Position numbers and translations under genes: made by a program. DNA of 64,000 bases from an uncultured Actinomycetota bacterium. GTDB lineage: Bacteria; Actinomycetota; Actinomycetes; Streptosporangiales; Streptosporangiaceae. The stretch covers positions 312,744 through 376,743 of the forward strand of contig CAWCZF010000004.1 in the NCBI GenBank assembly GCA_963799975.1, given 5' to 3'. Below, in pieces: positions 9,866 to 52,110 of this stretch. The first letter of the stretch is position 1. Each line of letters begins with the position of its first letter. The notes beneath the pieces were generated by a model. The model saw nothing but the letters and a program-made list of their open reading frames with translations, had not been told where the DNA came from and made no database searches.

Positions 9866-10086
9866 CCGTCCATTGTCGCGGCTCTGGAGGCCACGCGGGT
9901 GCCGGCCGCCCGCCCTGGCCTCGCCACAGGGGCCAGGGGGCGGGGAGATCACAGCCAGGTCCGGCCGTGCCCGTACGCCCAAGTGGCCGCGGAAGCGCCC
10001 CGCCCAGAGTTATCCACAGCCCGTCCGCTCCCCTTCCCCTCGCCGCGAGCCGGACTAGACAATGGAATTGGGGTGGCGCCCCCTGG

Positions 10087-10270: not shown

Positions 10271-11398
10271 CTAGTCGGCGGTGGCCTCGCCCGAGGCCGG
10301 CAGCTCAGGCGTGCCGATGACGCGGCTTATCCACAGGTCCGGGTCCTTGATCTCGGTGTGGGTCGGCAGCGTGTTGGGCGAGGTCCAGACGCGGTTGAAG
10401 CCGGCCATGCCGACGCGGTCGATGACGGCGGTGACGAAGCGCGAGCCCTCGGCGTACTGCTTCATCTTCATCTCCAGGCCCAGCAGCCGCCGGATCACGC
10501 GGTCCACCTGTGACGCGCCCTCGCGCCGGTGCTGGAACTTGGCGCGGATGTCGGCGACGGTCGGCACGACCTCGGGGCCGACCGCGTCCATCACGTAGTC
10601 GCCGTGGCCCTCGGCCAGCGTCATCACCGCGGTGAGTCGGTCGAGGATCTCGCGCTGCTCGGGGGTCTGGATCGCGTCGATGAGGTTGCCCTCGCCGCCG
10701 CGTACGACGTCCGCGACCGCCTCGCCGACGCCGCGCAGTCGCTCCAGCATGCGCGCCCGGATCGAGGTCGGAGGCCAGCAGGAAGGCGGTCATCTGGTCC
10801 TGGACGTACGCCCGCAGCCACGAGACCGAGGCGAACTGGGCGCGGTGGGTCTCCTCGTGCAGGCACACCCACAGCCGGAAGTCATGGGCGTCGACCTTGA
10901 GCTCCTGCTCGGCGCCGACGATGTTGGGCGCGACGAGCGTCAGCCGGCCCGTGGGCGCGCGGCCGGTGGGGTCCGGCGGCAGGAAGAGCTCGTACTGGCC
11001 GAGTACGCGGCTGGCCATGTAGGCGAGGATCGCGCCGACCTGCATGCCGGTCACCCGCGAGCCCACGGCCTGTACGACCGCGCCGCCGGCGCCGCCGCCG
11101 AGCAGGCCGCTGCCACGGCGCGCCTGGAGCTGCTCCATCAGCGGTTCGAGGACGACGCGGAAGCCGTCGACGTTCGCCTGGATCCAGCCGGGGCGGTCCA
11201 CCACCTTGGCCGGCGACGGGTCGATCCCGCCGTCCATCCCGGTGAAGTCGCGTACGTGGCCCTGCGCCACCTCGGAAAGCTCCCGCAGCTCGGCGACGAC
11301 CTGACGAGCCTCCCTGGGGCTGACCTGCGGCCCTGGGCGGACAAGACGGGTCCCCGTCTGAACGGCGACATTCCAGTCGATCATGGATGCTGGCATTG
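10271..11398 (-). pseudogene. zinc-dependent metalloprotease (DUF2342-type, HExxH); one frame interruption near 10755
   Basis: MPASMIDWNVAVQTGTRLV...RLWVCLHEETHRAQF... then a +1 hop to MLERLRGVGEAV...LAEGHGDYVMDAVG...MKQYAEGSRF. GGAG-like RBS context before the ATG at 11396-11398. Confidence 0.75.
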
Positions 11399-11511
11399 CA
11401 ACCCTCTCCGGCCGGGCCCTCCACCTAACGGTACGTCCCCGATCGCCTGGGGAGCATGCCTCACATGCTCCAACGCCCGGAGACCTCCGATGAACTCCCT
11501 CGACGTGACGA

Positions 11512-12896
11512 TCAACGACAACCGCAGCCGGCGAGGGTGCCGGCGAGCGTGTCCAGTGCGGCCAGCGCGAGCCGACGGGGACTGCACGTGGTTGGCCATG
11601 AACGCGAACGCGAGCAGCCGCCCGTCCGCGTCGTACACCACGCCGGCGAGGGTGTTGACCCCGTCGAGCGTGCCCGTCTTGGCGCGTACGACACCTCGGC
11701 CGGCCGCCGCCGTACCCAGGCCGTAGCGGTGGGCGAGCGTGCCGGAGAACCCCGCGATCGGCATGCCGGACATCACCGTACGCACCTCGGGGTGCTCGGC
11801 CGAGGAGGCGTCGAAGGCGAGGAGCCGCGCCAGGCCGCCCGGCGTGATCCGGTTGAGGTGGGAGAGCCCGCTGCCGTCGACCGTGTCGATGCCGGCCGCG
11901 ATGCCGAGGCCGCTCGAGCACCTGGTGCACCGCCGCGGCCCCGCCCTGGAAGGTGACCGGGCGGCCGAGCTTCATCGCGACCTGGCGTGCCATCGCCTCG
12001 GCGATGTCGTTGTCGCTGTCGGTCAGCAGCCGCTCGACCAGCGCGGAGATCGGCGGGGACTGTACGGCTCCGAGCCGCTGCGCGCCTTTGGGCGCGCGTC
12101 CGCGCGCGCCGATGGTGGCCGACACGCCCTGCCGGTCGAGCTGCCGTGCGAACGCCGCGGCGGCGATCCGCGGCGGGTCGGCGACCCGGGTGGGCGAGCC
12201 CGGCGCGACGCGGCCCTCGTCCAGTTCCAGCGCGGAGACCGGGGCGACGTCGCCCTCGGCGAAGTAGCCGGGCTTCCAGCCGGGCCCGGAGGTGCCGCCC
12301 TGGTAGGCGGAGGCGTCGTAGTCGACCTTCACGTGCCGTACGCCGGCGGCCTTCAGCGCGGTCGCGGTCTGCGCGGCCAGGTCGGCGAGCGTGGCCGGCT
12401 TGGGGTAGGCGTTCTTGGGCGCGGAGGTCGTCAGCGTGGGGTCGCCGCCGCCGACGAGGACCACGCCGTTGCCGTCGCGTACGGCGCTGGTGGTGATCCG
12501 GTGGTCCGGCCCGGCGGAGGCGAGCACGGCCGTCGAGGTGGTCAGCTTGGTGGTCGAGGCGGGTACGGCGGGCAGGTCGGCGTTGCTGGCGAACAGGGCC
12601 TTGTGCGTCATGGCGTCGATCACGGTGCCGCTGAGGTCGGCGCCCATGCCGGAGTTCCGCATCGGACCCGCCAGGCGCGCCGCCAGCGATCCGGATGTGG
12701 GCAGCGGCGCGCTCCCGGCCACCGGGGTCAGCGCGAGCTTGCCCGCGCTCATGATCGATCTGGCCGCCACCGTCGGCGGGCGCAGCGCGAGCGAACGGTC
12801 AGGTGTGAGCTTGACCACTGCCAGCGCGGCAGCGACCAGGAAGACGTTCAGCAGCGCCAGTGTGATCATGGCCACGGCGCGCTCGGGCCTGCGCAC
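11512..12896 (-). pseudogene. D-alanyl-D-alanine carboxypeptidase/endopeptidase (PBP4 / S13 family); two frame interruptions (near 11925 and 11585)
   Basis: Signal/TM segment (ITLALLNVFLVAAALAVV) and SxxK (PASTTKLTT). After the hops come ...TDSDNDIAEAM..., ...GVVRAKTGTLDGVNTLAGVV...FAFMAN and then ...ALDTLAGTLAGCGC. Confidence 0.8.
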
Positions 12897-34142: not shown

Positions 34143-34209
34143 GCCCGGTTGTGCGAGGAGTGGACCGGAACCGGTAGACTTCGGGGCGCGCCGCATCTTG
34201 GTGCGGCCG

Positions 34210-34282
34210 GCCGCCTTAGCTCAGTCGGTAGAGCGATTCACTCGTAATGAATAGGTCATCGGTTCGATTCCGATAGGCGGCT
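34210..34282 (+). tRNA. tRNA-Thr (anticodon CGT)
   Basis: The cloverleaf folds by hand: acceptor GCCGCCT/AGGCGGC, D-arm GCTC/GAGC, anticodon arm ATTCA-CTCGTAA-TGAAT, T-arm ATCGG-TTCGATT-CCGAT, discriminator T. CCA is not encoded. Confidence 0.93.
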
Positions 34283-34283
34283 C
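34238..34283. repeat. attL: 46-bp direct repeat (3' half of tRNA-Thr), identical to 51971-52016
   Basis: TCACTCGTAATGAATAGGTCATCGGTTCGATTCCGATAGGCGGCTC occurs at both positions with no mismatch. Confidence 0.9.
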
Positions 34284-34350
34284 CCAGCTCAAAGGCCCCC
34301 TCCGATCTTCGGAGAGGGCCTTTTGCTAACGCTCTTGCTAACAGGCGCGT

Positions 34351-35586
34351 CTACGCCGCCGTGATGGCCTTCGCGAAGACGTCCGCAGCAGCGGTCTCGG
34401 CGGATCGGATCACGTGGGCGTACACCCTCAAGGTGATGGCCGGGTCACCGTGCCCGAGCCTTGCGGCGACGACGTGGACCGGGACTCCGGCCAGGAGGAG
34501 CGTCGTGGCGTGGATGTGGCGCAGGTCGTGCAGGCGTGCGTACGGCAGCAGTTCCGCCGGAGGCTCCCCCTCCTTCGGGTCGTTGTGCGCGTTGATGAGC
34601 TTGCGTGGAAGCGCCGTCACGGTGTCCGGGTAAATCGGGTCGCCCCAGCTCGTTGCGAAGACGTGGCCGTCCTTTTCGCCCCGCCACGATTCACCGGCGA
34701 GGAGCTTGTCAGCCGACTGCGTCTTGTGGTGCTCGCGAAGAACGGTGACCGTCTCCTCATCGATGCTGACGATGCGTTTTCTTCCGCTCTTTGTCGTCCC
34801 TTCCAGCCTCTCCCCCTCGACCACGCCTGCCGAGCCCGTGATGGTGATCTGCTTGCCGTCCAGGTCGACGTCGTTCCAGCGGAGATTGAGCAGTTCGCCC
34901 CGTCGCGCGCCCGTGTAGGCGGCCACATGGAAGAAGGCGAACAGCCGATGACGTCGCGCGATGGACAGAAAGGTCCTTAGCTCGGCAGGCGTCCAGACGG
35001 TCCCGGGCTCCGCCGCGCGAACACGTGGCCGCTTCGCCCGCTCGACCGGTGAGGTGTCGATGAGCTGATCGACTACGACCGCGTCACGGAACGCACGGCG
35101 AAGGATCGCGTGCGTGTGCACGACGGTCGCCACCGCGAGTGGTCCTCCGTTCCGGCCGCCTCCCTTGAGGAGGTCCAGGTAGAGCTTGGTGATGGCGGAG
35201 GGGCGGACGGCCTGGAGCTTCAGGCCGCCGATGTACGGATTGACGTAGAGCCGGATGCCCTTGCGGTAGTCCTCAAGCGTCCCCGGCTTGATCTCCATGG
35301 CGTGGCTGTCGAGCCACTGGCCGAGGTACTCGGCGACAGTGATCTCATTCCGGTCGATGTACTCGCCGCGGCGTGCCTTGACGCGCGCTTCGTCGCGGGC
35401 GGCCTTGGCTTCCTCCTCGCTGGGGAACCCGCCCACCCAACGCGGACGGCTCGCGCCGGTCTCGGGGTCCTTGACGCGGATGACGTAGGACCAGGTGTTG
35501 CCGCGCTTCATGACGCCGTCGCGAAGCTTGGGCTTGCTCTTCCTGGTCCGCTTGCGGTTGTTCGGTCCTTCGGGGGTCGTGGTCAT
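34351..35586 (-). CDS. int: tyrosine-type site-specific integrase
   Basis: Intact 411-aa ORF next to the tRNA. It has an N-terminal SAM-like domain, ...AAYTGARRGELLNLRW.DVDL..., ...LHDLRHIHATTLLLAGVPVHVVAARLGH.DPAITLRVYAHV (R..HxxR..Y catalytic set). Confidence 0.93.
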   Translation of the reverse strand: MTTTPEGPNNRKRTRKSKPKLRDGVMKRGNTWSYVIRVKDPETGASRPRWVGGFPSEEEAKAARDEARVKARRGEYIDRNEITVAEYLGQWLDSHAMEIKPGTLEDYRKGIRLYVNPYIGGLKLQAVRPSAITKLYLDLLKGGGRNGGPLAVATVVHTHAILRRAFRDAVVVDQLIDTSPVERAKRPRVRAAEPGTVWTPAELRTFLSIARRHRLFAFFHVAAYTGARRGELLNLRWNDVDLDGKQITITGSAGVVEGERLEGTTKSGRKRIVSIDEETVTVLREHHKTQSADKLLAGESWRGEKDGHVFATSWGDPIYPDTVTALPRKLINAHNDPKEGEPPAELLPYARLHDLRHIHATTLLLAGVPVHVVAARLGHGDPAITLRVYAHVIRSAETAAADVFAKAITAA

Positions 35587-35765
35587 CAGGCGGCCTCTTC
35601 CATGAGCTGGTCGATGTAGGAGGTGAGTGCGCGGTAGGGCACGCGGCGTGAGCCACCGATGCGGAGTGAGGCGATGGCGCCGGCCTTGATGAGCTCGTAG
35701 AGCTTGCTGCGGGAGATGCCGAGCGCGGCGGCGGCTTCGGGCACGGTGAGCAGGAGCTTCGTCAT
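35586..35765 (-). CDS. xis: excisionase / MerR-type HTH DNA-binding protein
   Basis: 59-aa MTKLLLTVPEAAAALGISRSKLYELIKAGAIASLRIGGSRRVPYRALTSYI. The stop overlaps the int ATG. The ATG at 35763-35765 overlaps the presumed repSA stop. Confidence 0.8.
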   Translation of the reverse strand: MTKLLLTVPEAAAALGISRSKLYELIKAGAIASLRIGGSRRVPYRALTSYIDQLMEEAA

Positions 35766-37164
35766 GCGGCGGCCTGTTCGACAGCGCCGGGAGTAAGTGG
35801 TGGCAGCGGTCTGCCGCTGAGTGCGGCAGATGAGGAAGGCTTCGCCGGGGGTGTGGCCTCGTCCGGCGTATTGCCAGTGGGCGACGATGAGGACTTGGTC
35901 CTCGTCGGTGAGGGGGAGTCGGCCGGTGGTGATGTGGTGTTCGCGCTGGTTGTGGGCGCTCGGGCGGTGCGGAGTGCGCCGAGGGTGGTGGAGTATCGGC
36001 GGGATTTGGTGGAGAAGTGGCCGCGGAAGCCGAGCATGTGGGACCACTCGGTGAGGCGGAGGTCTGCGAGTTCGGGCAGGCCGCCGAGGCGGTGGCATTC
36101 GGTGATCAGTCGGCGTGGGTGGTCGCGGAGGCCGAGCCGGTTGAGGTCGTCGGTGGGTCGTATGGGGCGGTCGAGGGTGCCGACGCATTCGGCGGCTTTG
36201 GTGGCGTACTTGGCGATGTAGCCGGCGACGGCTTGGTCGGTGAGTTCGCCGGTGGTGGTGATGGGGCGTACGTCGACCTGGTCGCCCCAGGCGAGGCACG
36301 CGTGAGGTGAAGGTGTCGGCGGCCGGGGTGTTGACGGTTACGGCTTGGGCCGCGTGCCGTACGGCCCCGTCGAGGACATCGGCCGTCGCCCAGCCCGGGG
36401 CGGTTGTCGTGGGCCCGTCTGGTCCGTCGAAGCGGATGACGGCGTGGAAGTGGACGACGCCGCGCCGCTGGTATTCGGCGACCTTGGCGAAGGAGACGGT
36501 CAGGATGTCCCGCAGCTCGCGGGCGGTCAGGCCCGCGGATTTGGCGACGTGTCGGCGGAGTGCGAGGGTGAAGCGGCGCCATAGTTCGGGGGCGAGTGAG
36601 TTGAACAGGACCGAGCCGGAATAGTCGTAGCAGTCCGGGCAGAGCGGCTCGCCGAGGCGGGGATCGTCGGTGCCGTGTCGTTCGGTGCAGGACTGCGGGC
36701 GTCCGTGCGGGCAGGGGCCGAGGTCACGGCGAGGGCGGCACGGGCGGAGTGTGGCCGTTGTGTTGCCGTCGCGTGTGGACGGGTCCGAAGGATGGGGCGG
36801 TCAGGGTGGCGAAGACGGCGGGGTGGTCGGTGACGGTGGCGGGTATGCCTTTGCCGCCGACGAGGCCGGCGCGGACGAGTTGGTAGGTGTCGGCTCGGTA
36901 GGTCTCGGCGCAGGAGGGGCAGCGGGATGCGCGGCGTGTCTTGCAGGCGACGCGGAGTACGCCGTCCGGCTCGTGGTCGGTGGAGTAGCGGTGCAGGACG
37001 GTGCCGGTCAGCGGGTCGTGGTGTTCGATGCGGCCGCGGAGGTGGATGGGTTGTGCGCATCCGCCGGTCCGCTGGATCTGGGCGGCCCATCGCTGGTAGT
37101 CCGGGGCGGTGGCCCGGCGGGCGATGTCGCGGAGGGTCAGCGGGGACGGGACGGCAGCGGGCAA
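35762..37164 (-). pseudogene. repSA: RepSA-type AICE replication initiator; at least 4 frame interruptions as given
   Basis: Segments in three frames: ...TLRDIARRATAPDYQRWAAQIQRTGGCAQPIHLRGR...CKTRRASRCPSCAETYR / ...GEPLCPDCYDYSGSVLFN...VAEYQRRGVVHFHAVIRFDG / ...WGDQVDVRPI...AGYIAKYATK / ...MLGFRGHFSTKSRRYSTTLGALR / ...LIVAHWQYAGRGH. Confidence 0.8.
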
Positions 37165-37389: not shown

Positions 37390-37754
37390 CAGGCGGCAGC
37401 GGCCTCGTGCTCGAAGGTCGGGGCGTAGGTCATGAGCGCCTGATGGGCGGCTCGGCGGCGCGCGGGGATGTGAACGGCGCTGTAGGTGATCCGGCCGAAG
37501 GTCTTGGCGACCGTGTAGTGGCCGCCGTCCGCGGTGTCGTCGGTGACGGTCTCGCCGAGTGCGGCGGCGATGGTGTCGATCTCGGCCCGCTCGGTCGCGT
37601 CGTCTTCGCTGCGGGCGAAGACGGTGTAGTCCTCTCCGAACTCGCGGACGGGGACACCGGGGTTGGCCTCAAGGAAGTCGGCCAGGGCGCGGAGGCCGGC
37701 GATGGTCTGGGTACGGGCGAACAGGTCATCGGGGAAGATCGGCTGTGTGGTCAT
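37389..37754 (-). CDS. hypothetical AICE backbone protein
   Basis: 121-aa ORF with acidic, non-repetitive composition (MTTQPIFPDDLFARTQTIAGLRALADFLEANPGVPV...). It sits in the operon chain. Confidence 0.5.
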   Translation of the reverse strand: MTTQPIFPDDLFARTQTIAGLRALADFLEANPGVPVREFGEDYTVFARSEDDATERAEIDTIAAALGETVTDDTADGGHYTVAKTFGRITYSAVHIPARRRAAHQALMTYAPTFEHEAAAA

Positions 37755-37763
37755 CTGGTTCCT

Positions 37764-38484
37764 TCAGGCGGTTCGGATTTGGCGGAGCAGGTCGGAGGCG
37801 AGTTGGTTGGAGACGCCGAGGCGGGCGCGTAGGGCGTCGCGGGTGATCGGCCGTCCGTGGTGGCTCTGGTGTTCGTCGGCGACCCGGCGGGCGAAGGTGA
37901 GGAGTTCGGCCGCCGGGTGCCGGGACGCGGCGCGTCGTCGGCGCCGCTTGATCGTCCGCATCGTTTCGTCGCCTGCTCGGCCGCGTCGTCCTGCTCGTCC
38001 GCTTGGTCGTCCTGCTCGTCCGGGACGGGGATGGGGGCCGGGGACGGCCGTCCGAAGGAGGGCGGGACGGGGGACGATGCCGCCGTGGTGGTGGCCGGGG
38101 TGCGGCCGGTGGAGCGGCGTTCGAGCATCGAGACGGCGACGAGGAAGGCACCGGCCGGGGTGCCGGCGGTGAGCCATCCCCAGGTGGTCGGCTGGGCTTG
38201 GTCGAGGTTGGCGGCCAGGGACAGGACGATGCCGCCGACCAGGACGAGCGTGGGCCAGGACAGCCCGCGTACGGCCGGTGGGTACGTTTGTCGCGTTGGC
38301 GTTCGCGTGCGGCCATGACGCAGGTCAGGTCGATGCAGATGGCGATGGCCCAGGCCATCCAGCCGTGTTGTCCGTGCTGGTCGGCGGTGTCGCGGATGTG
38401 GGTGAACGATCCAGCGGCGGCGATCGAGGCCAGGACGAGCATCGGCCCGGAGTCCGCGGCGATCTCGGCCAGGCGGGGCAGCAT
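37764..38484 (-). pseudogene. DUF2637-type membrane protein (Spd-like spread protein) with C-terminal HTH-like tail; two frame interruptions
   Basis: MLPRLAEIAADSGPMLVLASIAAAGSFTHIRDTADQHGQHGWMAWAIAICIDLTCVMAA... / ...WGWLTAGTPAGAFLVAVSMLERR... / ...LLTFARRVADEHQSHHGRPITRDALRARLGVSNQLASDLLRQIR. Confidence 0.6.
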
Positions 38485-38742
38485 CAGGCCGCCCACGGGT
38501 CGAGCACCTCGGCGAGCAGGGCGGCGAGTTCGGCGGTCACAGTGGTGTGTCTCGGCCCAGGTGTGCGCCTGCTCGAACCGGTCGGTGAACAGCCATTCCA
38601 TGCAGCGTTCGCACACTGCGGCGTACAGGCCGCGTCCCTCGTCCCACTCGACCGAGACGGGACCGGCCGGGGTCGGACCGGGACCGGGCACGGACGGACG
38701 GGGACGGCGAGGACGAAGCTTGATGATCTTGGCCAGTGCCAT
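38484..38742 (-). pseudogene. small hypothetical AICE protein (Cys/His-containing); probably ends at the TGA at 38484-38486 after a 1-nt shift
   Basis: AGGAG RBS, then ATG at 38740-38742: MALAKIIKLRPRR...VSVEWDEGRGLYAAVCERCMEWLFTDRFEQAHTWAETHHC. The alternate frame gives ...AELAALLAEVLDPWAA with a stop overlapping the next ATG. Confidence 0.4.
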
Positions 38743-38819
38743 GAGGACTCCTGTTTTCGGGCATGCGTCGGCTGGGGAGTTGGCGCGGGGGGGTGCGCCG
38801 GGCGGTTGGGGGGAGGGGG

Positions 38820-40172
38820 TTATGCGGCTTCGTCGTGGCCGGTGGCCGTCAGCTCGGCCCAGGGGCGCGCGAGGTGGGCGAAGCGCCGGGCGGCGCGTTC
38901 GGCCGCTTCCTCGCTGACGTAGACGGACCGGGCGCGATGCCAACTGCCGTCCTGTCCGGCGATGACCGCGACGCCGGGCATCTCGGCGGGGATCTGCCGG
39001 GCGGCCTCCAGCGCGGCCGGGTCCATGTCGCCCAGCGTCATGTTCGCCGTCTCGGGATCGTTCACGCGGTGGCAGATACGGCCCGGAGAGCTGGGATCGA
39101 AGGGCGGTCACACCGGGGCCGAGGTCGGAGCCGATCCGCTGGCCGCAGATCATCAGGTACACCCCGAAGGCGCGGCCGAGTTGCGCCACCCGGAGCAGTG
39201 CGGTCGCGGCCCGGGATACCTCTTCTTTCTGGCTCTTGTCGGCCATCAGGAACAGTTCGGCGACCTCGTCCACCAGGACCACGACCGGGGTCCGGCCGCA
39301 GGTGCTCGGGGAGTTTCCAGATGTTGCGGGCGCCATGGGTCCGGCAGAGCGCCATCCGTACGGTGACGATCTGGACGAGGTCATCGAGGAGCCCGACGCA
39401 TTCGGTACGGGTGGTGGCCAGCGCGGACAGCCGCGGAGCGTACGGGGTGAACTCGACGCCGCCCTTGAGGTCGAAGCCGACGAGGGCGATCGGCTGGGGC
39501 GCGAGTCCCTTGATGATGGCGTTGGCCAGGTTCGACTTGCCGGATTGGGTCGCTCCGGCGTTCAGCCAGTGCGGGCACGGTCCGGAAGTCCATGACCCAC
39601 GGTTGGCCGTTCTCCAGACGGCCAGGTCGTACGGTCAGCAGCTCTCCTGTCTCCGGGGCGATGTCGACCACGCGTCAGCGGGTCGCGCATGGTGGCGAGC
39701 AGCAGCGACGCGGCCCGGCTTGGACTTGACGACCCGTACGGCGTGGACCCGCCAGGCGTGCGCGAGCCGTTCGGCGACCTTGGCGTAGTCGTCGGGGACC
39801 TGGCCGTCGAGCAGCTTGACCCAGACCCGCCAGCCCAGCCGTGTCGGCCGCAGCACCCACAGCGGGGGAGCCTTCTCGACGAGGACGCTCCGGAGACGAC
39901 GCCGCTCGACACACGGCCGCCACGTCTCTCGCCGATCGCGACATCGAACCCGCGAGCGGTACCGAGTCCAGGCCGAGACGCCAGCGCCGCCGCTTGCAGG
40001 ACAGGCCACAGCCGACGGCGACGTGCGACCAGGTCAGGTAGACGAGTACGGCCTTGACCGGGAACTCAATGACGTACCAGAAGGAGCGAGGCAGCCACCG
40101 CCGCCACGCCCAGCCCCCGGCCGCCGAAGCGGCCAGGGCACCGAGAGCGACGACGATCGTCGTGTGGTTCAC
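38820..40172 (-). pseudogene. traB: FtsK/SpoIIIE-family dsDNA translocase (TraB/TraSA-type conjugative transfer protein); at least 5 frame interruptions
   Basis: N-terminal TM region (VNHTTIVVALGALAASAAGGWAW...). Walker A HWLNAGATQSGKSNLANAII. ...VVVLVDEVAELF... (Walker B). ...FGVYLMICGQR...TALRSQLSG... C-terminus ...ICHRVNDPETANMTLGD.... Confidence 0.8.
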
Positions 40173-40579: not shown

Positions 40580-40617
40580 AGTGATGGTCTACTATGGACG
40601 TGAAGAAGGGAGAGTGA

Positions 40618-41362
40618 TGGCGATCACACAACCCCGGTACGCGCAAGTGGCAGACGTGCTGCGCGACCGGATCAACGCCGGGACGTACGAACCCGGTGAT
40701 CAGCTTCCGTCCCAGCGCGAGCTAAGGGAGGAGTTCGATATCTCCGTCCCGACCGCGAAGGCCGCGATCTCGCAGCTCGTCAGCGAGGGACTCGTCTACG
40801 CCCACCAGGGGCGAGGCGTGTTCGTGCGGGAGACGAAGGAGCTACTTAGGTTCGCCGGCGGTCGCTACGGCCTGGCCGGCACGCCGAACGCTCGCGAAGA
40901 AGAGGCCAGCGGTATCGAGCTGGACGTCCGCGCCGAACATCGACAGGTCCAGGCCACACCCGAAGTCGCGGCAAGGCTGGAGATCGAGCCGGGCGACATG
41001 TGCAGCGAAGCCGTCTACTCGTGGTACCTGGACGGCGAACCGGTCATGATCAGCACCCAGTGGGAGCCACTCGCCATGACCCGCGAGAACCGAGATCGAG
41101 ACGCCCGCCGGCGGGGAGCGCGGCGAACCGGACGTGATCACGCGGTTCGGCAAGATCGGCATCACCGTGAAGAAGACCCGCGAGGACATCCGGACCCGGA
41201 TGCCGACCCCGGACGAGGCCCACACGCTCAAGACCCCCAGCGGGGTGCCGGTCTTCTACATTCAGCGCACTCACTACGCCAGACGTCCCGGTGGAAACCG
41301 CGGACATCGTCATGCGAGGGGACTCGTTCGTCGTCCGTAACGAACAAGCCATCCCCCTCTAA
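40618..41362 (+). pseudogene. korSA: GntR/HutC-family transcriptional repressor (KorSA-type) with UTRA domain; two frame interruptions (near 41085 and 41285)
   Basis: MAITQPRYAQVADVLRDRINAGTYEPGDQLPSQRELREEFDISVPTAKAAISQLVSEGLVYAHQGRGVFV (wHTH). The UTRA part continues in shifted frames (...ITRFGKIGITVKKTREDIRTRMPTPDEAHTLK.P.GVPVFYIQRT.Y...). Confidence 0.8.
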
Positions 41363-41716
41363 CCAAACGCGCAGACAGGGGCCGTGACGCGATCCAGTTC
41401 AGCGATCGTCCCGGCCTCGTCCTTCGCCAATCCCTGATTATGTACCTCAGAGCAAAGACAGGAAATGCGGAGAGTCATCATTATGAACCCGAGCGCCGTA
41501 CCCCGAAGATGCCCACACCATCGCCGATCGCTTGGTGAAAGCCTGCCAAGCCCAGGGCTTGAGCGCCGCCATACTCAGCCCGACACGTATCAAGGTGAGC
41601 CTGCCGAAGGCCCACCACCACCTCGCCGAAGTCATCAAGATCATGCCCGACGAGGACGAGAACCTCGTCCCTCTACTGGAGCTGGGACGAACGCATCTGC
41701 CCGGCTAGCGAGATCG

Positions 41717-42294: not shown

Positions 42295-42661
42295 ATGCTC
42301 TCCCCATCGTCGGACTCCCCTGACGACCAGTTACTACGACCGAACGAAGCAGCCGAACTCTTAGGCGTCCTACCACACCAGCGTCGCGAAGTGGGCAAGA
42401 GCCGGAAGACTACGGCCCTCCTTCACCCCCGGCGGCCATCGCCGCTACCGACTGGCCGACGTCCGCGAACTCCTCAACCTCAACGAAATAACGCCAGAGC
42501 AACGCCAACTCGAACAGGACGCGGTCAGGCTGTACGAACAGGGCTGGAGCATCCGCCAAGTCGCCGCCCAGTTCGGAACCACCTACGGCACCATGCGCAG
42601 ACTCCTCCTCAGACACAAAACGCTGAGGTCGCGGAGCACCCCACGGCCCGAACGCCCGTAG
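42295..42661 (+). pseudogene. excisionase-family (MerR-like) HTH plus second HTH DNA-binding protein; one frame interruption near 42368
   Basis: ...DDQLLRPNEAAELLGV / YHTSVAKWARAGRLRPSFTPGGHRRYRLADVRELL...QDAVRLYEQGWSIRQVAAQFGTTYGTMRRLLLRH. Stop at 42659-42661. Confidence 0.55.
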
Positions 42662-42673
42662 CGGACCGGGCGC

Positions 42674-43772
42674 TCAGCCACAATGACGCGTGACGGTCGA
42701 TACCGCGTCGTCGAGGCCGCCTCCAGTCGCGTCCATGACGGCGTCCACGGACCAGGAGAGCGTGCGGCCGTCCTGTGTCAATTCCAAGGTGAGGCCGGCT
42801 TCGAAGCGGGTGGCGAACAGTGCGAAGTCCGCCGCCGGAACCGCTTGGTGGACGGCGTCGAGCAACGCGGCCGCGAAGTCGTCGCGTTGGGCCCTGGCTG
42901 CCAAGTCGCACTCGCGCAGGGCGGCGGCGACCGCGGCGCTGGCCGGGTCGTAGGCCGACAGGTGGGGCAGCGACGCCGGGTCGCGTAGACACGCGGCAGC
43001 GTCCAGGCCCCAGGAGCGGACGCCCTCCTCCGCGTCGAGCGACTCGATGAGCGGAGCCGTGGCCCGGGGGTCGCCCGCCTGGCCAGCCGAAGACCGCCTC
43101 CTCGTGGACGGCGCGGCTGTCATCGCGGATGCGCGCCCACAAGGCGGCGCGCGCGGCAGGGGTGTCGACGGCCAGTTGGCTGCCCAGGCCGAACGTCGCC
43201 CAGTCGCGCACATCGGCATCCGGGTCTCCAGTCAGGCGCACCAGCACGTCGACCTCGATGCCGCCGAAGTCGCCGGTGGCCACGGCGGGCAGCGCCTGGG
43301 CCACCTGGCAGCGAACGTCCGCGCCAGGGTGCCCGGCCAGACTCACCAGGACCGAGATCGCCCGTTCGTCGGCCGTACGGCCGAGGGCGCGAGCCAGGGA
43401 CCAGGCGACGTCGGTATCGGTCTCCGGCGCCAAGCCCAGCAACGCGGATGCGGCCTCCTCGCGTACGGACTCGTGTCGGTCACTCGCGCAACCCAGGAGA
43501 TCGCAGCCGACCGAGCGGGTCACCGGATCGGGTGAGCCGAGCATCCCGACGCCGTGCCGCAGCGACGCTTCGCCGTCCTCCGCGACCTGGCCGAGGATCT
43601 GCCAGACGGCGTCGTACTCCTCTGGGTCCGTGACATCACGCGCCACCTCACGGCCCGCGTGACCCGAACGTCGATTGCCGGCTGCGTTCTCTCGCGAGGT
43701 CGAGCGAACTCCGTCGATCCCCGGCCGGACACCGCGACCGCACCCCATTAACGCAGACACCGGCTCGCCCAT
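42674..43772 (-). pseudogene. HEAT-repeat (PBS-lyase-type) protein; one frame interruption near 43085; start uncertain
   Basis: Repeated D.D..VR..A...LG units (SPDPVTRSVGCDLLG, HPGADVRCQVAQALP, DPDADVRDWATFGLG). The C-terminal part continues in ORF 42674..43219 (..GDPRATAPLIESLDAEEGVRSWGLDAAACL...). Confidence 0.6.
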
Positions 43773-43885
43773 CGAGAAACCGCAGCGAAGCCGAACCAGC
43801 ACCTATAAAGCATCAGGTGGGACTGAAGTGACAAGCATCTACCGGGACAGGACAGGCTTACGGGGCGCGTGGATGAGGACTTTCT

Positions 43886-46800
43886 CTACGTCTTCAAGGG
43901 CGCCGCTCCGCGTCGCCGGCCGGTCCATCCGGGCCGGGCGTGCGGCCTCTCCGGGCCGGTCCCGGCCCGGCCAACCGGCCCTACTCGTCTGGCTCTTGAA
44001 GCCACGGGAAGGTCTTCCCCGGTGAGCTGCCGCCAGACAGAGGTGACGGTCTCACGGTCCTTCTTGTGAGCTTGGCGCAGCATGCTCACGATGCCCTCGA
44101 CCAAGTCGTTGAGATCCCGTTCAACCGCGATCACCAACGCCTCAAAGAGGCAGCGAGTGCTTAGGCTCACCTGGCTGAGTTCCAGGAGAGCCATACCCAT
44201 AACCGTCGTGCTTCGGGCGAGGTCAGGGCGGTAGCGGTCGGGGTTGGTCTCGGCCAGCTCGCGATAGGTCTGACGGCTTCTTCGGTGACCGGGAGTGCCT
44301 CGGCCGGGCGGCCCAGCGCCGAGAACCGGACACCGAGGTTGGACAGGGAGGAGGCGAGGTCGGGGCGGTAGCGGTCGGGGTTGGTCTCGGCCAGCTCGCG
44401 GCGGATAGCGACGGCTTCTTCGGTGACCAGGAGTGCCTCGGCCGGGCGGCCCAGCGCCGAGAACCGGACACCGAGGTTGGACAGGGAGGAGGCGAGGTCG
44501 GGGCGGTAGCGGTCGGGGTAAGTCTCGGCCAGCTCGCGATAGGTCTGGACGGCTTCTTCGGTGACCGGTAGTGCCTCGGCCGGGCGGCCCAGCGCCGAGA
44601 ACATGGCGCCGAGGTTGGTCAGGGAGGAGGCGAGGTCGGGGCGGTAGCGGTCGGGGTAAGTCTCGGCCAGCTCGCGATAGGTCTGGACGGCTTCTTCGGT
44701 GACCGGGAGTGCCTCGGCCGGGCGGCCCAGCGCCGAGAACATGGCGCCGAGGTTGGTCAGGGAGGAGGCGAGGTCGGGGCGGTAGCGGTCGGGGTAAGTC
44801 TCGGCCAGCTCGCGATAGGTCGGGGATGGCTTCTTCGGTGACCGGGAGTGCCTCGGCCGGGCGGCCCAGCGCCGAGAACATGGCGCCGAGGTTGGTCAGG
44901 GAGGAGGCGAGGTCGGGGCGGTAGCGGTCGGGGTAAGTCTCGGCCAGCTCAGCGATAGGTCTGGACGGCTTCTTCGGTTGACCGGTGAGTGCCTTGGCCG
45001 TGCGGCCCAGCGCCGAGAACGGGATACCGAGGTTGGTCAGCGAGCGCGCGAGGTCGGGGCGGTAGCGGTCGGGGTGGTCAGCGGCCAGCTCGCGGTGGAG
45101 CGCGACGGCTTCCTCGGTCGACCGGCAGTGCCTCGGCCGGGCGGCCCAGCTCCGAGAGCATGACGCCGAGGTTGGTCAGCGAGGAGGCGAGGTCGGGGCG
45201 GTACGCGGTCGGGGTAAGTCGCGGCCAGTTCGCGGTAGATCTGCGACGGCTTCCTCGGACGAGCGGCGAGCGCCTCGGCCGGGCGGCCCAGCTCCGAGAA
45301 CCGGACACCGAGGTTGGACAGGGAGGAGGCGAGGTCGGGGCGGTACCGGTCGGGGTCAGTCGCGGCCAGTTCGCGATAGAGCGTGGACGGCTTCCTCGGT
45401 CGACCGGCAGTGCCTCGGCCGGGCGGCCCAGCGCCGAGAACCGGACACCGAGGTTGGACAGGGAGGTGGCGAGGGCGGGGCGGTAGAGGTCGGGCTCGGT
45501 CGCGGCCAGCTCGCGGCGGATCGCGACAGCTTCCTCGGCCGAGCGGCAGCGCCTCGGCCGGGCGGCCCAGCGCCGAGAACCGGACACCGAGGTTGGACAG
45601 CGAGGAGGCGAGGGCGGGGCGGTAGCGGTCGGGGTTGGCCGCGGCCAGCTCGCGGCGGATAGCGACGGCTTCCTCGGTGACCAGGAGTGCCTCGGCCGGG
45701 CGGCCCAGCGCCGAGAACATGACGCCGAGGTTGGACAGGGAGGAGGCGAGGTCGGGGCGGTAGCGGTCGGGGTGGGTCGCGGCCAGCTCGCGGCGGATCG
45801 CGACGGCTTCCTCGGTCGAGCGGGCAGCGCCTCGGCCGGGCGGCCCAGCGCCGAGAACTGGACGCCGAGGTTGGTCAGGGAGGAGGCGAGGTCGGGGCGG
45901 TAGCGGTCGGGGTAAGTCGCGGCCAGCTCGCGATAGATCGGGACGGCTTCTTCGGTCGACCGGGAGTGCCTCGGCCGGGCGGCCCAGCTCCGAGAACCGG
46001 ACACCGAGGTTGGACAGGGAGGAGGCGAGGTCGGGGCGGTAGAGGTCGGGGTAAGTCTCGGCCAGCTCGCGATAGGTCTGGACGGCTTCTTCGGTGACCG
46101 GGAGTGCCTCGGCCGGGCGGCCCAGCGCCGAGAACCGGACACCGAGGTTGGACAGGGAACGGGCGAGGTCGGGTAGGTAGATCTCGCGGTCGGTGTCGGT
46201 GAGGGTGCGGCACACTAAGGTAAGGAATTCGGTCAAAGTCGCGCTGAAGAACGCGCCGCTGACCGATGACTTGGGGAGCTGGTCGGCTACGGCGAACGCG
46301 TTTTGTTTGAACGCGGTCGGATTGGTGCGGCCGAGCTGGAGCAAGCCATGTCGCAGAATGACAGCTGTTTCCATGGTGGCCGCGAGTGGGGGAGCCGCCG
46401 CCGCGAACGGCGCCGGATGATCCACGATCAGGCCCCGTACCTGATCAGCGATTACGCGATATTCGGGGTGGCTAGTAGTGCGCAGGAGGGTGAACAGCGC
46501 CGCGTAGGCCGTGTCGAAGTCATCGATCAAATCAGCGACATGGCCCAGCAGTAAGGTCTGGGCCGACAAGATGTCGCCCAACAGGAGCTCGGCGAGGCGA
46601 TCGGGCTGGAGATGACCAACCCCGTCCTCAACCCCGGCGAGTGGGGGATACAGGGCCGCGAGCCAGCCCACCAGCCCCGCAACGATGCCATCGTCGCGTT
46701 CCTGCTCTTCCTTGTCAAGCCGGCGGCGAGTCCGGCGAGCGCCTGGCAGCGTTCCCGATCACACGGCCCCATCAAGATCAATGCCGCCACCGCCCGATCC

Positions 46801-48382
46801 AGTACGGCATCTTGTTCACGAACACGGGCATCGGGATCGAGCTGCGCCGACAAAACACCCTCGGCAAGCAGCCCGCGTCGGGCGGCCACCCGCCGTAAAT
46901 AGCGGCGTTCGTGGCGGATCAAGGCACGCTCTTCCCCCTTCCCAAGGGGCGGGCGTTCTTCACCCGTGGCCTCAGCGAGCAGATCAGTGAGCGCGGTGAT
47001 CTGCAACGTCAACGCATTCCCAAGACGATCGTCATCAAGATCGCGTGGAGCATCCGACAGCCGCTCCGCCAACGCCCTCCACCCGGAAGCCTCCACGCCC
47101 GGCACGGGCGGTTCTGGCAGCCGCGCCAGATGCTCGGCCAGCCCCTTGACCGCCGCCGCATACGCCTCCCGGCGCGATCGCCCTTCCTTTGTCAGGGCAC
47201 CGAGCCGCCGAAGGTCAGTGACGGCAGACCATGCATTGGTGAGATTGGTCCACCAGTCCCCCGCCGACCGTGCCAGCAACAACACCCGCACCATCCGAGC
47301 GGGTGGTTCCTCAGCCAAATCCGCCAATACCGCGATGTCGTTCGGGTTGGTCTCTGCATAGTCCGCGACGATCAGCACCGGCTGCGACGAACCCCGCACC
47401 CGGCCCACATACTCCCGCAGACCACCGGCAGGAAACCCGCCATCACCGTCACCGGCAGGATCGGCCGATCGCCGCAGAAATCCGGTGATCCACTCACCGC
47501 GCTGTGTGTCGGTGAGGAACTCTCGCGCCAACCGCGTCTTGCCTTGGCCGCCCTCCCCGGTCACGAGCAACATCGAGAACCGGTCTCGGCCATCGCGCCA
47601 CCGGCGCAACTCGGCCAGCACATCCCCACGGCCGCGAAAGCCCACGGCCTCTACCGCCGGTGCCAGCACCGAACCCGGCGTCCCCGCCTCCACCACCCCA
47701 GACGGAACCTGAAACAGATCACGCAGCTCTACCGACTCCACCACCGGTTCCACGCCGGTGTCCTCGGTGATCAGCTCCCTAAACTTCGCATCGGCCATGA
47801 TCTGATGGATGCGCACCGCATACAGCCGGTCATTGGAAAACCGCCCATCATCTTGTGCGGCGACACCGACCAACAAGCCGCGGCAAAAAACCGCAGCGCC
47901 CGATATACCAGCCCATTCATGACCGTGCACCACACGCGGTCCGCTGCGCTGGCCGAGCACGTATCCGCGTTTGGAACCGACCGCCAGCGGAGATAACCGG
48001 CCATCGAGCTGCTCCACACCCCGAACGGAGTCAAAATCCACGAACTCCGGGAATCCCAGACCCGTATAGTCCGCAGCGTCGCTTCCAGTGAAGCGGCCCC
48101 ACCGCACCGGCGGCGCCCCTGACACAAAAAGATCATCCAACCGGACCAGCGCCACATCATGGGCGATGCTTCGCCACACCGGAGTGGCCCCATGCTCACT
48201 CACCGGCCCCGCATCCGGATGGCCGAGAAAGACCCGCGCCGCGGCCACCATTCGCCGGTCGACTCATCCACCAGGACATGCCGAGCGGTCAACACCAGCC
48301 GCCGTCCAACCAAATACCCCGAACCGCCAAACGATTCCGCCATCGTCCCGGCTCGGACATCGGCTAGCCGCAAGCCGTCCAT
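43886..48382 (-). pseudogene. giant S1 (trypsin-like) peptidase domain - STAND-class P-loop NTPase - helical linker - TPR-type repeat protein; frame interrupted near 48245 and 46720 and repeatedly inside the repeat array. A shifted frame gives a more natural stop at 43981-43983 (...GEDLP-WLQEPDE*)
   Basis: The start ATG at 48380-48382 abuts the Trypco2 gene stop. Protease triad candidates: LTARHVL (His), HDVALVRL (Asp), AGISGAAVF (GxSG Ser). Walker A LLVTGEGGQGKTRLAREF, Walker B-like PVLIVADYAET, then VRVLLLARS. After ~250 aa of helical region come at least 14 repeats of consensus PDLASSLSNLGVRFSALGRPAEALPVTEEAVxxYRELAExxPDRYR. Confidence 0.8.
44200..46190 (-). repeat. tandem array of at least 14 near-identical ~138-bp (46-codon) coding repeats (TPR-type) inside the STAND gene
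   Basis: The motif ..GGCGGCCCAG ends at 44316, 44454, 44592, 44730, 44869, 45010, 45149, 45291, 45431, 45570, 45708, 45848, 45987 and 46125. Spacings are 138 x5, otherwise 139-142, never shorter. Confidence 0.9.
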
Positions 48383-48694
48383 TCACTCACCCCACGGGCG
48401 CGCCTGACGACGCCGCACATCGACCGGCACACCACCCGTCGCCGCATCCTTCACATCCAACTTCACCCGCAGCCGATGCGTATCCGCCCGCGCTACCTTC
48501 CCCGCTCCACCCAACGTCACCACACCTAACACCACCTTGCCGTCCACCCCGCCCTCCGACCGCGACTCCACCAAGAACTCCATCTCCACCTCGGTCACCC
48601 TGAACTGCAACTGCTGATCTTGAGCAGCGTCCTGCGCAACCCCCAACTCATCACGCAGCACCTCAAGCGCCTGACTCAACCCCACATACTCCAT
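48383..48694 (-). CDS. Trypco2-like (trypsin co-occurring domain 2) small protein
   Basis: The internal ATG at 48692-48694 gives 103 aa: MEYVGLSQALEVLRDELGVAQDAAQDQQLQFRVTEVEMEFLVESRSEGGVDGKVVLGVVTLGGAGKVARADTHRLRVKLDV. The pattern is helix, then 'F.V.EVE.EF.V', then 'K..hhVV.LGG.G......TH+h+V.L', which I recognise as Trypco2. The stop is directly adjacent to the protease-STAND start codon. Confidence 0.7.
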   Translation of the reverse strand: MEYVGLSQALEVLRDELGVAQDAAQDQQLQFRVTEVEMEFLVESRSEGGVDGKVVLGVVTLGGAGKVARADTHRLRVKLDVKDAATGGVPVDVRRRQARPWGE

Positions 48695-49224: not shown

Positions 49225-50135
49225 CTAGGTCAAGTTGTGGCGCGCGGTGGCCGGCGGACGCCAGCCCAAAATGCTCTCGACCATGCGAACCGATGGGACG
49301 ACGTTGGCGATGTCGTGCACTCGGACGATCCTCGCTCCCTGGAGAATGCACACGGAGAGGGTTGCAATAGTCCCCGCTAGGCGTTCGTTCTGCGGCAGGT
49401 CGAGGGTCTCGCCGATGAAGTCCTTGTTTGATACTGCAACCAGGGTCGGATAACCGATACCCGTGATTTCTGGCAGATGGCGGGTTAGTTCCAATGAGTG
49501 ATGCGTATTCTTATTGAGATCGTGGCCCGGATCGAGAATGATTCTGTCTTCCGGCACCCCATGGCTGACCGCCGCGTTCGCTTGCTGGCGAAGATGGCAG
49601 CGACCTCCCCGGCGACGTCTTCGTACGCGGGGCGTGGGAATGGCGTGCGTGGCGCTGCCAGGCTATGCGTGATGATCAAACCTGCTTCGGCCTCTGCGAC
49701 TGTGTCTGCCAAGGCTAGGTCGTGTAGGCCCGTAATATTGTTGATCACGTCTGCGCTGGCCGCTAGCGCTACGCGAGCGACTTCGGGCCGGTAGGTTTCG
49801 ACCGAGATGACCGCGTCGGTTCGTTCGCGGGCAGCCTTTACGAGGGGGAGGACGCGATCGATCTCTTCGCGCTCGGTCACCTCGGGGCCGGGCGAAAAGG
49901 GAACTCCGCCAATGTCGAGCCAATCCGCCTCATGGAGAATCGCATTCTCGACCGCCGTGATGGCCTTCGATAGATCGAAAGTGCGGCCACGATCATGGAA
50001 CGAGTCGGGAGTCCGATTGATTATCGCCATGACCGCAACCTGGCGCGAAAAGTCGAACCTCCGACGACCGATGGTCCGACGCGGACTTATGAAGTCAGGA
50101 TAGAAAATCTTAGGATTCGTTTCCATGAGACCCAA
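49225..50135 (-). pseudogene. second dihydropteroate-synthase-fold gene, FolP2-like (mycobacterial Rv1207 type); single frame interruption near 49583
   Basis: ...VMAIINRTPDSFHDRGRTFDL...ADWLDIGGVPFSPGPEV...VISVETYR.EVA..AL.A.ADVINNITG... / ...VPEDRIILDPGHDLNKNTHHSLELTRHL.E...GYPTLVAVSNKDFIGETL......RLAGTIA..SVCILQGARIVRVHD. The local sequence is visibly more AT-rich than the rest of the window. Confidence 0.8.
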
Positions 50136-50321: not shown

Positions 50322-51233
50322 TCAGGACTGCCGTCGACGTACGTTGGTGACCAACCTCAGCAGCCCGAAGAACACCAACGCGCCGACCACGACAACGCTC
50401 ATCGCGATGGCTCGCTCCGAGAACGTCTTGGCCTTGACGATCACCGTTCCGGAGCCGATCAGAAAGCCCAGCAAGGTCACGAACAGGCCCAACACCTCAA
50501 CCATCTTCAACAGCCCCTCGGACACCAGTTCCTGAGCGACTGTTACCCGTTGGGTGAGATGCCGTGACGCCTCATCGATCTTCTGTTCCATCGCGGCTGA
50601 CGCCTGGTCGATCCGCTCGTCCACCCTGGCAGAGATCTCGTCCCCAAGAGCAGCGGCAGTCTCGGCCGCCTGCTGACGCATGTCGCGCGTGTTGATGATC
50701 GTTCGGCGCTCCTGCGCGTACTGCTCGTGGACGAGGATGTTCCCCACGCCGAACAGGTCGATCGCGAGATCGATGGCAGCAAGGGCTTCGTCGTACCTCC
50801 CAAGGCGCCGCAGTGCGGCAGCTCGCCGGTAGTGGATGTTCTCGTTGACCTCGCCTCTGGCCATCATGTCGTCGGCCAGGCTCAGCAAGGTCTCTGCCTG
50901 CTCCTCAAGATGATCAGCGAACCAAATCGCACTCAGGCAGACCTGGAGGCTCTTGTTGTCCGTGTCTGGCGCACGTACGGCCCGGTGGAAGAGATCGAGT
51001 CCGTTCGAGGCCCGCGAGCCGATACCGCCGAACGCCGCGAAGCTCATGATCAGTGCATCGTCGTGGAACTCACCCAGCCACTCATTGCAACGGGCCTGGC
51101 TCTCGCGAAACCGGTAGTCGAAGCGGAGCCGCTGACCGTGCACGTACGCCAAGACGAGCCGCTGCATACGAGAGCCGCTCAGCCCCCGCGCTGAACCCCA
51201 CTCCAGAGGCCCCGGGGTACCTCTGCTCGGCAA
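50322..51233 (-). CDS. hypothetical protein: TPR-like helical region, coiled coil, two C-terminal TM helices. It probably extends N-terminally to about 51505 through 1-2 frame interruptions near 51200
   Basis: 303-aa ORF. ...YRRAAALRRLGRYDEALAAIDLAIDL (TPR-like). ETAAALGDEISARVDERIDQASAAMEQKIDEASRHL (coiled coil). LKMVEVLGLFVTLLGFLIGSGTVIV and AIAMSVVVVGALVFFGLLRLV (TM helices). AT-richer codon usage, like folP2. Confidence 0.5.
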   Translation of the reverse strand: MPSRGTPGPLEWGSARGLSGSRMQRLVLAYVHGQRLRFDYRFRESQARCNEWLGEFHDDALIMSFAAFGGIGSRASNGLDLFHRAVRAPDTDNKSLQVCLSAIWFADHLEEQAETLLSLADDMMARGEVNENIHYRRAAALRRLGRYDEALAAIDLAIDLFGVGNILVHEQYAQERRTIINTRDMRQQAAETAAALGDEISARVDERIDQASAAMEQKIDEASRHLTQRVTVAQELVSEGLLKMVEVLGLFVTLLGFLIGSGTVIVKAKTFSERAIAMSVVVVGALVFFGLLRLVTNVRRRQS

Positions 51234-51970: not shown

Positions 51971-52016
51971 ACCCTTAGCCTCACTCGTAATGAATAGGTC
52001 ATCGGTTCGATTCCGA
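51971..52016. repeat. attR: 46-bp copy of the tRNA-Thr 3' half
   Basis: Identical to 34238-34283. The upstream sequence lacks a D-arm, so this is not a second tRNA gene. Confidence 0.9.
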
Positions 52017-52110
52017 TAGGCGGCTCGTGCTTTGACCAGGGCGTTCACCTTAATCCGGTGGACGCCCTGAGTCATTCCGGCGGCAATTCCTGTTGCAGTT
52101 CCCGGGATGG

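Follow-up and report, generated by a model that had tools for sequence, protein, structure and literature searches.

Trypco1 and Trypco2 were defined by Kaur, Burroughs, Iyer and Aravind in 2020 (PMC7159879) as neighbors of trypsin domains in vWA–MoxR VMAP ternary systems. Pepco, treated as the same protein as Trypco1/Trypco2 by Evans et al. (bioRxiv 10.1101/2025.11.14.688446), was studied there as a pair with a trypsin–Avs4 protein of Streptomyces subrutilus by genetics, biochemistry and cryo-electron microscopy. The SsPepco gene lies immediately upstream of that for the trypsin-bearing Avs4 homolog (SsAvs4), which is triggered by a phage portal protein. Pepco is an SDS-resistant 9–10-mer β-barrel that is pre-assembled before cleavage, and the activated protease, fused to a signal transduction ATPase with numerous domains (STAND), removes a ~2 kDa tail after the conserved Ile97 (between Ile97 and Arg98). 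Pepco truncated exactly at the cleavage site is lethal on its own, deletion of Pepco abolishes toxicity, and toxicity requires both the catalytic serine and the amphipathic helix of Pepco (10.1101/2025.11.14.688446). Here we analyzed a two-gene locus in a 64,000-nucleotide (nt) stretch of DNA from an uncultured Actinomycetota bacterium of the Streptosporangiaceae (GCA_963799975.1, contig CAWCZF010000004.1, positions 312,744–376,743; the window, in whose coordinates all positions are given). A Trypco2/Pepco gene (48383–48694, (−) strand) is followed by a large gene (43981–48382, (−)) for a trypsin-like protease, a STAND NTPase and an array of tetratricopeptide repeats (TPRs). From sequence comparison and analogy, the locus is probably a two-gene, proteolysis-gated cell-killing defense module of the Pepco (Trypco2)/trypsin–STAND kind, carried as cargo by an actinomycete integrative and conjugative element (AICE), with a large gene that is really intact and breaks in its reading frame that are artefactual.

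The initial annotation of this DNA had recognized the pair from its letters and held that the protease–Trypco2 architecture had no experimental characterization, a statement that has been overtaken by the work on SsPepco and its trypsin–Avs4 partner. Its attribution of the prediction to Kaur et al. was also loose, as Trypco1/2 were defined there within vWA–MoxR VMAP systems and not beside STAND–TPR proteins. The architecture is thus already known and experimentally characterized; what is new here is a member that is borne by an AICE and combines an nSTAND5-like NTPase with a TPR array.

The small gene encodes a protein of 103 amino acids (aa), and its proposed identity as Trypco2 was borne out by a Pfam scan (PF19631, E = 6.1e-21, 74.9 bits, the cutoff being 24.2, model positions 1–77 of 78). 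Among 1.84 billion representative proteins, 384 relatives were found at E ≤ 1e-3. The AlphaFold2 (AF2) monomer (pLDDT 73.7) has an N-terminal helix (residues 6–24) followed by four β-strands (29–39, 42–47, 53–59 and 74–83) of alternating polarity, that is, amphipathic, and a disordered C-terminal tail. That tail, RRRQARPWGE, is 50% charged and has no regular structure in the model. The residue ahead of it, V93, lies in a column that V (49) or I (38) occupies in 87 of 93 homologs, the window protein having Val and not Ile; a conserved Gly stands before it, G88, which is kept in 81 of the 93. Across the same homologs the tail has a median length of 10 aa, with 36% charged residues and 12% Pro. 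The protein is accordingly a predicted pro-toxin. Because this Trypco2 matches SsPepco in its V/I column, the preceding Gly, the charged tail and the succession of helix and strands, we conclude by analogy that the locus would work like SsPepco–SsAvs4, with a different sensor that consists of an nSTAND5-like STAND module and a regular TPR array. A sequence search of the PDB with the Trypco2 protein gave no match, and a Foldseek search with its model returned hot-dog thioesterases throughout (best E = 0.13), which we took as chance. No exact match to the window Trypco2 protein or to the protein P0097 was found in the contig index.

The TGA of Trypco2 (48383–48385) directly abuts the ATG of the large gene (48380–48382), giving TGAATG at 48380–48385, exactly as had been noted. 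The large gene had been described as ~4.4 kb long. That size stands, as three-frame translation and reconstruction yielded a protein of ~1,465 aa once frame-corrected; in the window, however, it is not a single open reading frame (ORF) and is scattered over pieces at 48200–48382, 46527–48251, 45037–46671 and 43886–44881, together with others, in all three frames. Its end also moves: after correction of a C-run, the sequence closes with EDLPPWLQEPDE followed by TAG at 43981–43983, which judging from the sequence is most likely the true stop, in place of 43886. The segment from 44233 down to this stop (43981–44233, (−)) comprises C-terminal capping helices. A scan for promoters and terminators found nothing above shuffled sequences.

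Within the corrected protein, the trypsin-like (S1, Trypsin_2) protease domain occupies aa 20–174 (47862–48325, (−)) and contains the candidate triad H35, D76 and S161 in the motifs LTARHV (48275–48292), HDVALVRL (48138–48161) and GISGAAVF (47886–47909). It matched Trypsin_2 (PF13365) at 29.6 bits over the entire model (1–144 of 144) and passed the cutoff of 27.6 bits only after frame correction. The protease, P-loop and LLLARS motifs named initially were all present at the positions given, and in an alignment of 22 homologs the triad (S161 in GxSGA) and Walker A were invariant. When this alignment was searched as a profile against the PDB, its N-terminal part matched Deg/HtrA proteases, complement factor D and glutamyl endopeptidase, and its C-terminal part matched TPRs of kinesin light chains. 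The STAND-type P-loop NTPase core (47244–47639, (−)) has Walker A GEGGQGKT at 47535–47558 (invariant from G276 to K282), Walker B LIVADYAE at 47352–47375 (D341 of DYAE nearly invariant) and LLLARS at 47265–47282, where R366, L368–L370 and R372 are invariant. Its structure was modeled with AF2 from a 574-aa ORF, not from the full corrected protein (pLDDT 82.8), and the Foldseek neighbors of the model were ORC/Cdc6, the plant NB-ARC receptors NRC3, ZAR1 and NRC1, which are nucleotide-binding leucine-rich repeat receptors (NLRs), and EfAvs5, the set that a modeled STAND module should give. Among homologs, nSTAND_NTPase5 reached 37.1 bits in P0012, which passes the cutoff, and 31 bits in P0049, and a precomputed match is present in many others. 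A helical/winged-helix linker (46180–47243, (−)), all-helical in the AF2 model and with conserved HExxY and LQPDRLAE motifs, joins the NTPase to the TPR array.

The array (44234–46179, (−)) consists of 14 tandem units of the TPR_10/TPR_12, kinesin-light-chain type, each of 138 nt and 46 aa. Tandem Repeats Finder placed it at 44216–46180 with a period of 138 nt, 14.1 copies and 90% matches, and Pfam gave E = 4.7e-29 for TPR_10 and E = 6e-25 for TPR_12, so that the near-identical TPR-type repeats described from the letters were recovered by repeat finding, unit alignment and profiles alike. Per-column variability between units is concentrated at residues 10, 14–15, 18, 27–29, 34–36 and 41–43.

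The expectation that the two genes would be linked in homologs was upheld by a neighborhood survey of 80 homologous loci from species-representative genomes, counted at species level. The N-terminal protease domain was present in 80 of 80 and a Trypco2 gene in 76, lying immediately upstream in the same orientation in 71, divergently in four and downstream in one. The species-representative collection contains at least 524 such loci, of which nearly all belong to actinomycetes. In the closest relatives (L001, L002 and L003) the Trypco2 gene directly adjoins or overlaps that of the protease, as it does in a complete Dactylosporangium genome (L007) that encodes an intact protein of 998 aa. Some of the surroundings suggest a mobile or defense-island context elsewhere: in L003 (2012–5456) the pair is directly preceded by a group II intron reverse transcriptase and an IS4 transposase, and in L002 a Mrr-type restriction gene lies downstream of it. 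A sister group of proteins (P0012 and P0017, also P0006, P0009, P0013, P0015 and P0020) combines Trypsin_2 with nSTAND5 and has a C-terminal extracytoplasmic function (ECF) sigma-70 part in place of the TPR array, with regions 2 and 4 at roughly aa 786–940 (loci L005, 4001–7237, and L006). There a Trypco2 gene of 106 aa lies just downstream of the ECF-sigma sister gene, and L005 has a second, free-standing ECF sigma gene nearby; the sister protein may be a sigma factor under control of the protease, or else a sigma-like sensor.

The large gene of the window carries ~19 single-base indels: two deletions upstream of the array, 15 insertions and one deletion within it and probably one further deletion at ~44005, in the C-run after TGEDLP. 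The key comparison is with L004, a contig of another metagenome sample that was reached through P0104, which belongs to the cluster of the Trypco2 protein. Its element is nearly identical to that of the window and keeps the gene order, and outside the array the shared gene matches the window letter for letter over long stretches. At both upstream breaks L004 has precisely the base that restores the frame, in otherwise identical sequence. At the first (48240–48256, ~48250, (−)), where the window lacks one base in CCGCGGC^GCGGG, the extra base restores WWPRRPVILGHP; at the second (46705–46720, ~46712, (−)), where one base is lacking in GGCTT^GACAAGG, L004 reads GGCTTGGACAAGG, restoring AAGLDKEE. 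In its array L004 shows mostly deletions, with unit lengths of 133–139 nt, where the window shows insertions.

Once the indels are removed, all 14 units of the window translate to a clean 46-aa TPR consensus with zero stop codons. The inserted bases cluster at unit columns 78, 85 and 100, which are codons polymorphic between units; the insertion at column 85 occurs in seven of the eight units from 46041 to 45064, the exception being u45762. The pattern has the look of a systematic error in the consensus of tandem repeats, with the two alleles written one after the other (as in GTC[G]ACC), and not of random error. We also considered programmed frameshifting or a frame-keeping higher-order repeat of 417 nt (139 + 140 + 138 nt) and rejected both, as later triplets add up to 421 and 419 nt and the unit lengths in L004 differ. 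A frame plot based on G+C content at third codon positions combined with a hidden Markov model was too noisy to call frameshifts in this element of 63–69% G+C; it did flag switches of frame in the core region, which were later confirmed with Pfam.

Frame breaks are found throughout the window. The essential gene tilS (8878–9982) has its PP-loop and substrate-binding domains in different frames, Zincin_2 and dacB (S13) (10271–12896) are each spread across two or three frames, and inside the element the folP-like gene, the RepSA gene and the FtsK-like tra gene are also split; the HEAT gene at 42609–43802 is a further case. The background is ~1 indel per kb, and ORF-based annotation of the window is unreliable. 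Contig names in the project belong to MFD long-read metagenome-assembled genomes, which fits an origin of the assembly from noisy long reads. The homologous gene runs uninterrupted through each of the 73 complete loci, with a length of 1,114 aa at the median and 1,726 aa at most when counted from the start of the protease, and equally long, homogeneous arrays with 0% indels occur in L040 (14.3 copies at 92%) and L086 (13.7 copies at 90%). In the nearest complete genome, Spirillospora sp. NBC_00431 (L001, CP107927), the whole array lies in one frame with a single break before it; this break, at ~8170 between linker and array, leaves the gene annotated as an 866-aa 'serine protease' and a 545-aa ORF, and is either a real pseudogene frameshift or a residual error. 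Because housekeeping genes of the window are split as well, L004 supplies the missing bases and has different array indels, the contig names fit an assembly from long reads and the homologs are intact, the frame breaks are very probably errors of a noisy long-read assembly and the real gene is intact.

The pair lies inside a 17.8-kb pSAM2-type AICE, between perfect 46-nt att repeats at a tRNA-Thr gene. The 3′ part (34238–34283) of tRNA-Thr(CGT) (34209–34286, (+)) forms attL, and attR (51981–52026, (+)), 17,743 nt from attL, is a perfect 46-nt copy of it. Next to attL are a tyrosine integrase (34351–35586, (−); Phage_integrase, E = 5e-22) and a Xis-like HTH_17 protein (35586–36299, (−)), followed by a fragment of RepSA, the pSAM2-type replication initiator (36724–37164, (−); PF20199, E = 1.3e-48, model 1–118 of 438), whose gene is frame-split, an FtsK/SpoIIIE-type Tra and DUF2637 region (37726–39384, (−)), also frame-split, and a KorSA-like GntR/UTRA regulator (40581–41387, (+)). 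As this set of int, xis, RepSA, Tra and Kor-like genes lies between the att repeats, the view that the pair is AICE cargo is correct. The cargo spans ~9 kb and comprises the HEAT-repeat protein, the Trypco2 system, the folP-like gene and a TPR protein. The folP-like gene, a second, frame-split dihydropteroate-synthase-like (Pterin_bind) gene at 49225–50135 (−), adjoins Trypco2 and precedes it in L004 too; the TPR protein is a separate small one at 50322–51233 (−).

By comparison with SsPepco–SsAvs4, the following course of events is proposed for the window locus. The 14-unit C-terminal TPR array would bind a foreign protein, and ligand binding would license NTP-dependent oligomerization of the STAND module, as in STAND/Avs proteins generally. 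Oligomerization may then gather and activate the N-terminal trypsin-like domains, in which the H35/D76/S161 triad is conserved. By homology to the Ile97–Arg98 cut in SsPepco, the protease would cut the Trypco2 tail after V93, ahead of RRRQARPWGE, and the pre-assembled Trypco2 β-barrel would become a membrane pore, as seen for SsPepco, by which the cell would be killed or arrested.

Several points weigh against this interpretation of the locus. All evidence for the window locus and for its STAND subfamily is computational. The window Trypco2 has 103 aa against 117 in SsPepco, Val93 against Ile97 at the P1 position and a tail of ~10 against ~20 aa, and the equivalence of V93 and Ile97 was set by the published description of SsPepco, not by direct alignment. 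Its N-terminal helix is just moderately amphipathic, with 7.8% of shuffled sequences attaining the observed hydrophobic moment. Profile searches upheld the protease and TPR assignments but not the STAND one in full: in the corrected protein nSTAND_NTPase5 (PF25199) reached 18 bits, below its cutoff of 34, the AAA_16 match was likewise sub-threshold, and the STAND module is not demonstrably Avs4. PADLOC (2023) models matched neither protein, whether as fragments or frame-corrected. The Avs4 models in PADLOC-DB gave no match, the sole match being a trivial one to the protease region of Avs1b (E = 0.058). Because no PADLOC model matches, the defense role is argued from the effector pair's homology and from the context. 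With respect to intactness, the indel density of the array, ~8 per kb, is far over the window background, and it is for the array that we infer a repeat-consensus artefact; L004 is also a noisy assembly, which leaves some room for real frameshifts in this strain.

These last points bear on the alternative that the many frameshifts are real and the large gene a true pseudogene, Trypco2 alone being intact. The ~19 indels in 4.4 kb, their density in the array and the frameshift before the array in the closest complete-genome homolog all favor decay. Against it, essential tilS and further housekeeping genes of the window are likewise split between frames, L004 has both missing upstream bases and different array indels, and removal of the indels leaves neither in-frame stops nor degraded motifs, whereas a real pseudogene would gather substitutions too. 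A dead locus is therefore very unlikely, and the concern raised by the initial annotation on this score is most likely unfounded. It is no more probable, and in fact the least probable of the alternatives weighed here, that Trypco2 serves the protease as adaptor or inhibitor and is not the effector, the protease killing by cleavage of host or invader proteins. Kaur et al. and the diversity-generating retroelement paper do term Trypco domains adaptors or partner domains, and the initial annotation listed substrate, inhibitor and adaptor as options. Experiments on SsPepco bear out the substrate and not the other two: in the characterized system toxicity is lost when Pepco is deleted, and a Pepco that ends at the cleavage site is toxic by itself. 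Both the tail and the residue at the cleavage site are kept in the window Trypco2.

A proteolysis-gated module could also use the same machinery for another purpose, serving the AICE, for instance, by keeping out rival conjugative elements or plasmids, through post-segregational addiction or in hyphal kin discrimination, instead of acting against phage. The pair does lie between att sites inside an AICE, and neither protein matches an anti-phage model of PADLOC. The array adds to this: 14 units are present in both the window (44234–46179) and L004 (5825–7737), at ~84% array identity, and the hypervariable positions seem to differ between the two sets of units although the elements are otherwise near-identical. 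The regular, hypervariable TPR array of the window resembles the repeats of allorecognition-type NLRs. However, the characterized relative reacts to phage portal proteins, anti-phage systems are routinely borne by mobile elements, and most homologous loci, which were not surveyed systematically in this respect, are on chromosomal contigs without an obvious AICE. On balance, a purpose of this kind is unlikely, if the most credible of the alternatives. Given its near-identical units, ~10 hypervariable positions and divergence between the window and L004 elements, the array might further be a rapidly diversifying sensor carried by the AICE, possibly tuned to competing conjugative elements or non-kin hyphae and not to phage; this more specific proposal is a long shot, and the difference between the two arrays could be either real sensor diversification or the noise of two error-prone assemblies.

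Read as a proteolysis-gated defense module, the locus adds an AICE-borne variant with an nSTAND5-like NTPase and a TPR array, one that occurs widely in actinomycetes, to the Pepco–protease class of proteolysis-gated pore effectors. The regular hypervariable array offers a tractable system for the study of how bacterial NLR-like receptors diversify their specificity. If the divergence of the arrays is true, the module would be a mobile, repeat-shuffling recognition receptor, analogous to the NLR repeat arrays of fungi. In practical terms, near-identical 138-nt repeats in noisy long-read assemblies give rise to dense pseudo-frameshifts, by which intact immune genes seem dead and their annotation is fragmented.

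Among the described systems, vWA–MoxR VMAP ternary systems (PMC7159879) share with the locus the conserved pair of trypsin-like peptidase and Trypco2 and the enrichment in multicellular actinobacteria, but have three components, whereas here there are two genes and the STAND NTPase is fused to the protease. No vWA, MoxR or VMAP gene appeared in Pfam scans of the flanking AICE ORFs, where frame-split genes could mask weak matches. As an element, the AICE agrees with pSAM2-type AICEs in int, xis, RepSA, the FtsK-like Tra, the GntR Kor-like regulator and the 46-nt att at a tRNA 3′ end, and differs from them in its ~9 kb of cargo. Avs/AVAST and bacterial NACHT proteins (Gao 2022; Nature 2026, PMC13581612) have the same layout of effector, NTPase and repeat sensor and a presumed ligand-induced oligomerization, and the NTPase model of the window resembles NB-ARC NLRs and EfAvs5. 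In contrast to them, the putative window effector is a protease that would act in trans on a separately encoded pro-toxin, its sensor is a highly regular array of near-identical units in place of an irregular shape-complementary solenoid, and no numbered Avs family is assigned to it.

Bacterial gasdermin–protease and EACC1–protease modules follow the same logic, in that an adjacent protease removes an inhibitory C-terminal segment and thereby frees a membrane pore; their folds are unrelated to that of Pepco, and gasdermin and EACC1 assemble after cleavage, whereas the Pepco barrel is pre-assembled. The closest counterpart is SsPepco–SsAvs4 of S. subrutilus 10-1-1. Both loci belong to actinomycete hosts and place a small Pepco gene immediately upstream of a gene for trypsin, STAND and an α-helical repeat sensor, and in both small proteins a predicted helix followed by β-strands leads to an aliphatic residue ahead of a charged, Pro-containing C-terminal tail. 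Unlike SsAvs4, the window protein has an nSTAND5-like NTPase and a perfectly regular array of 14 × 46-aa TPR_10/12 units, and its locus is borne by an AICE.

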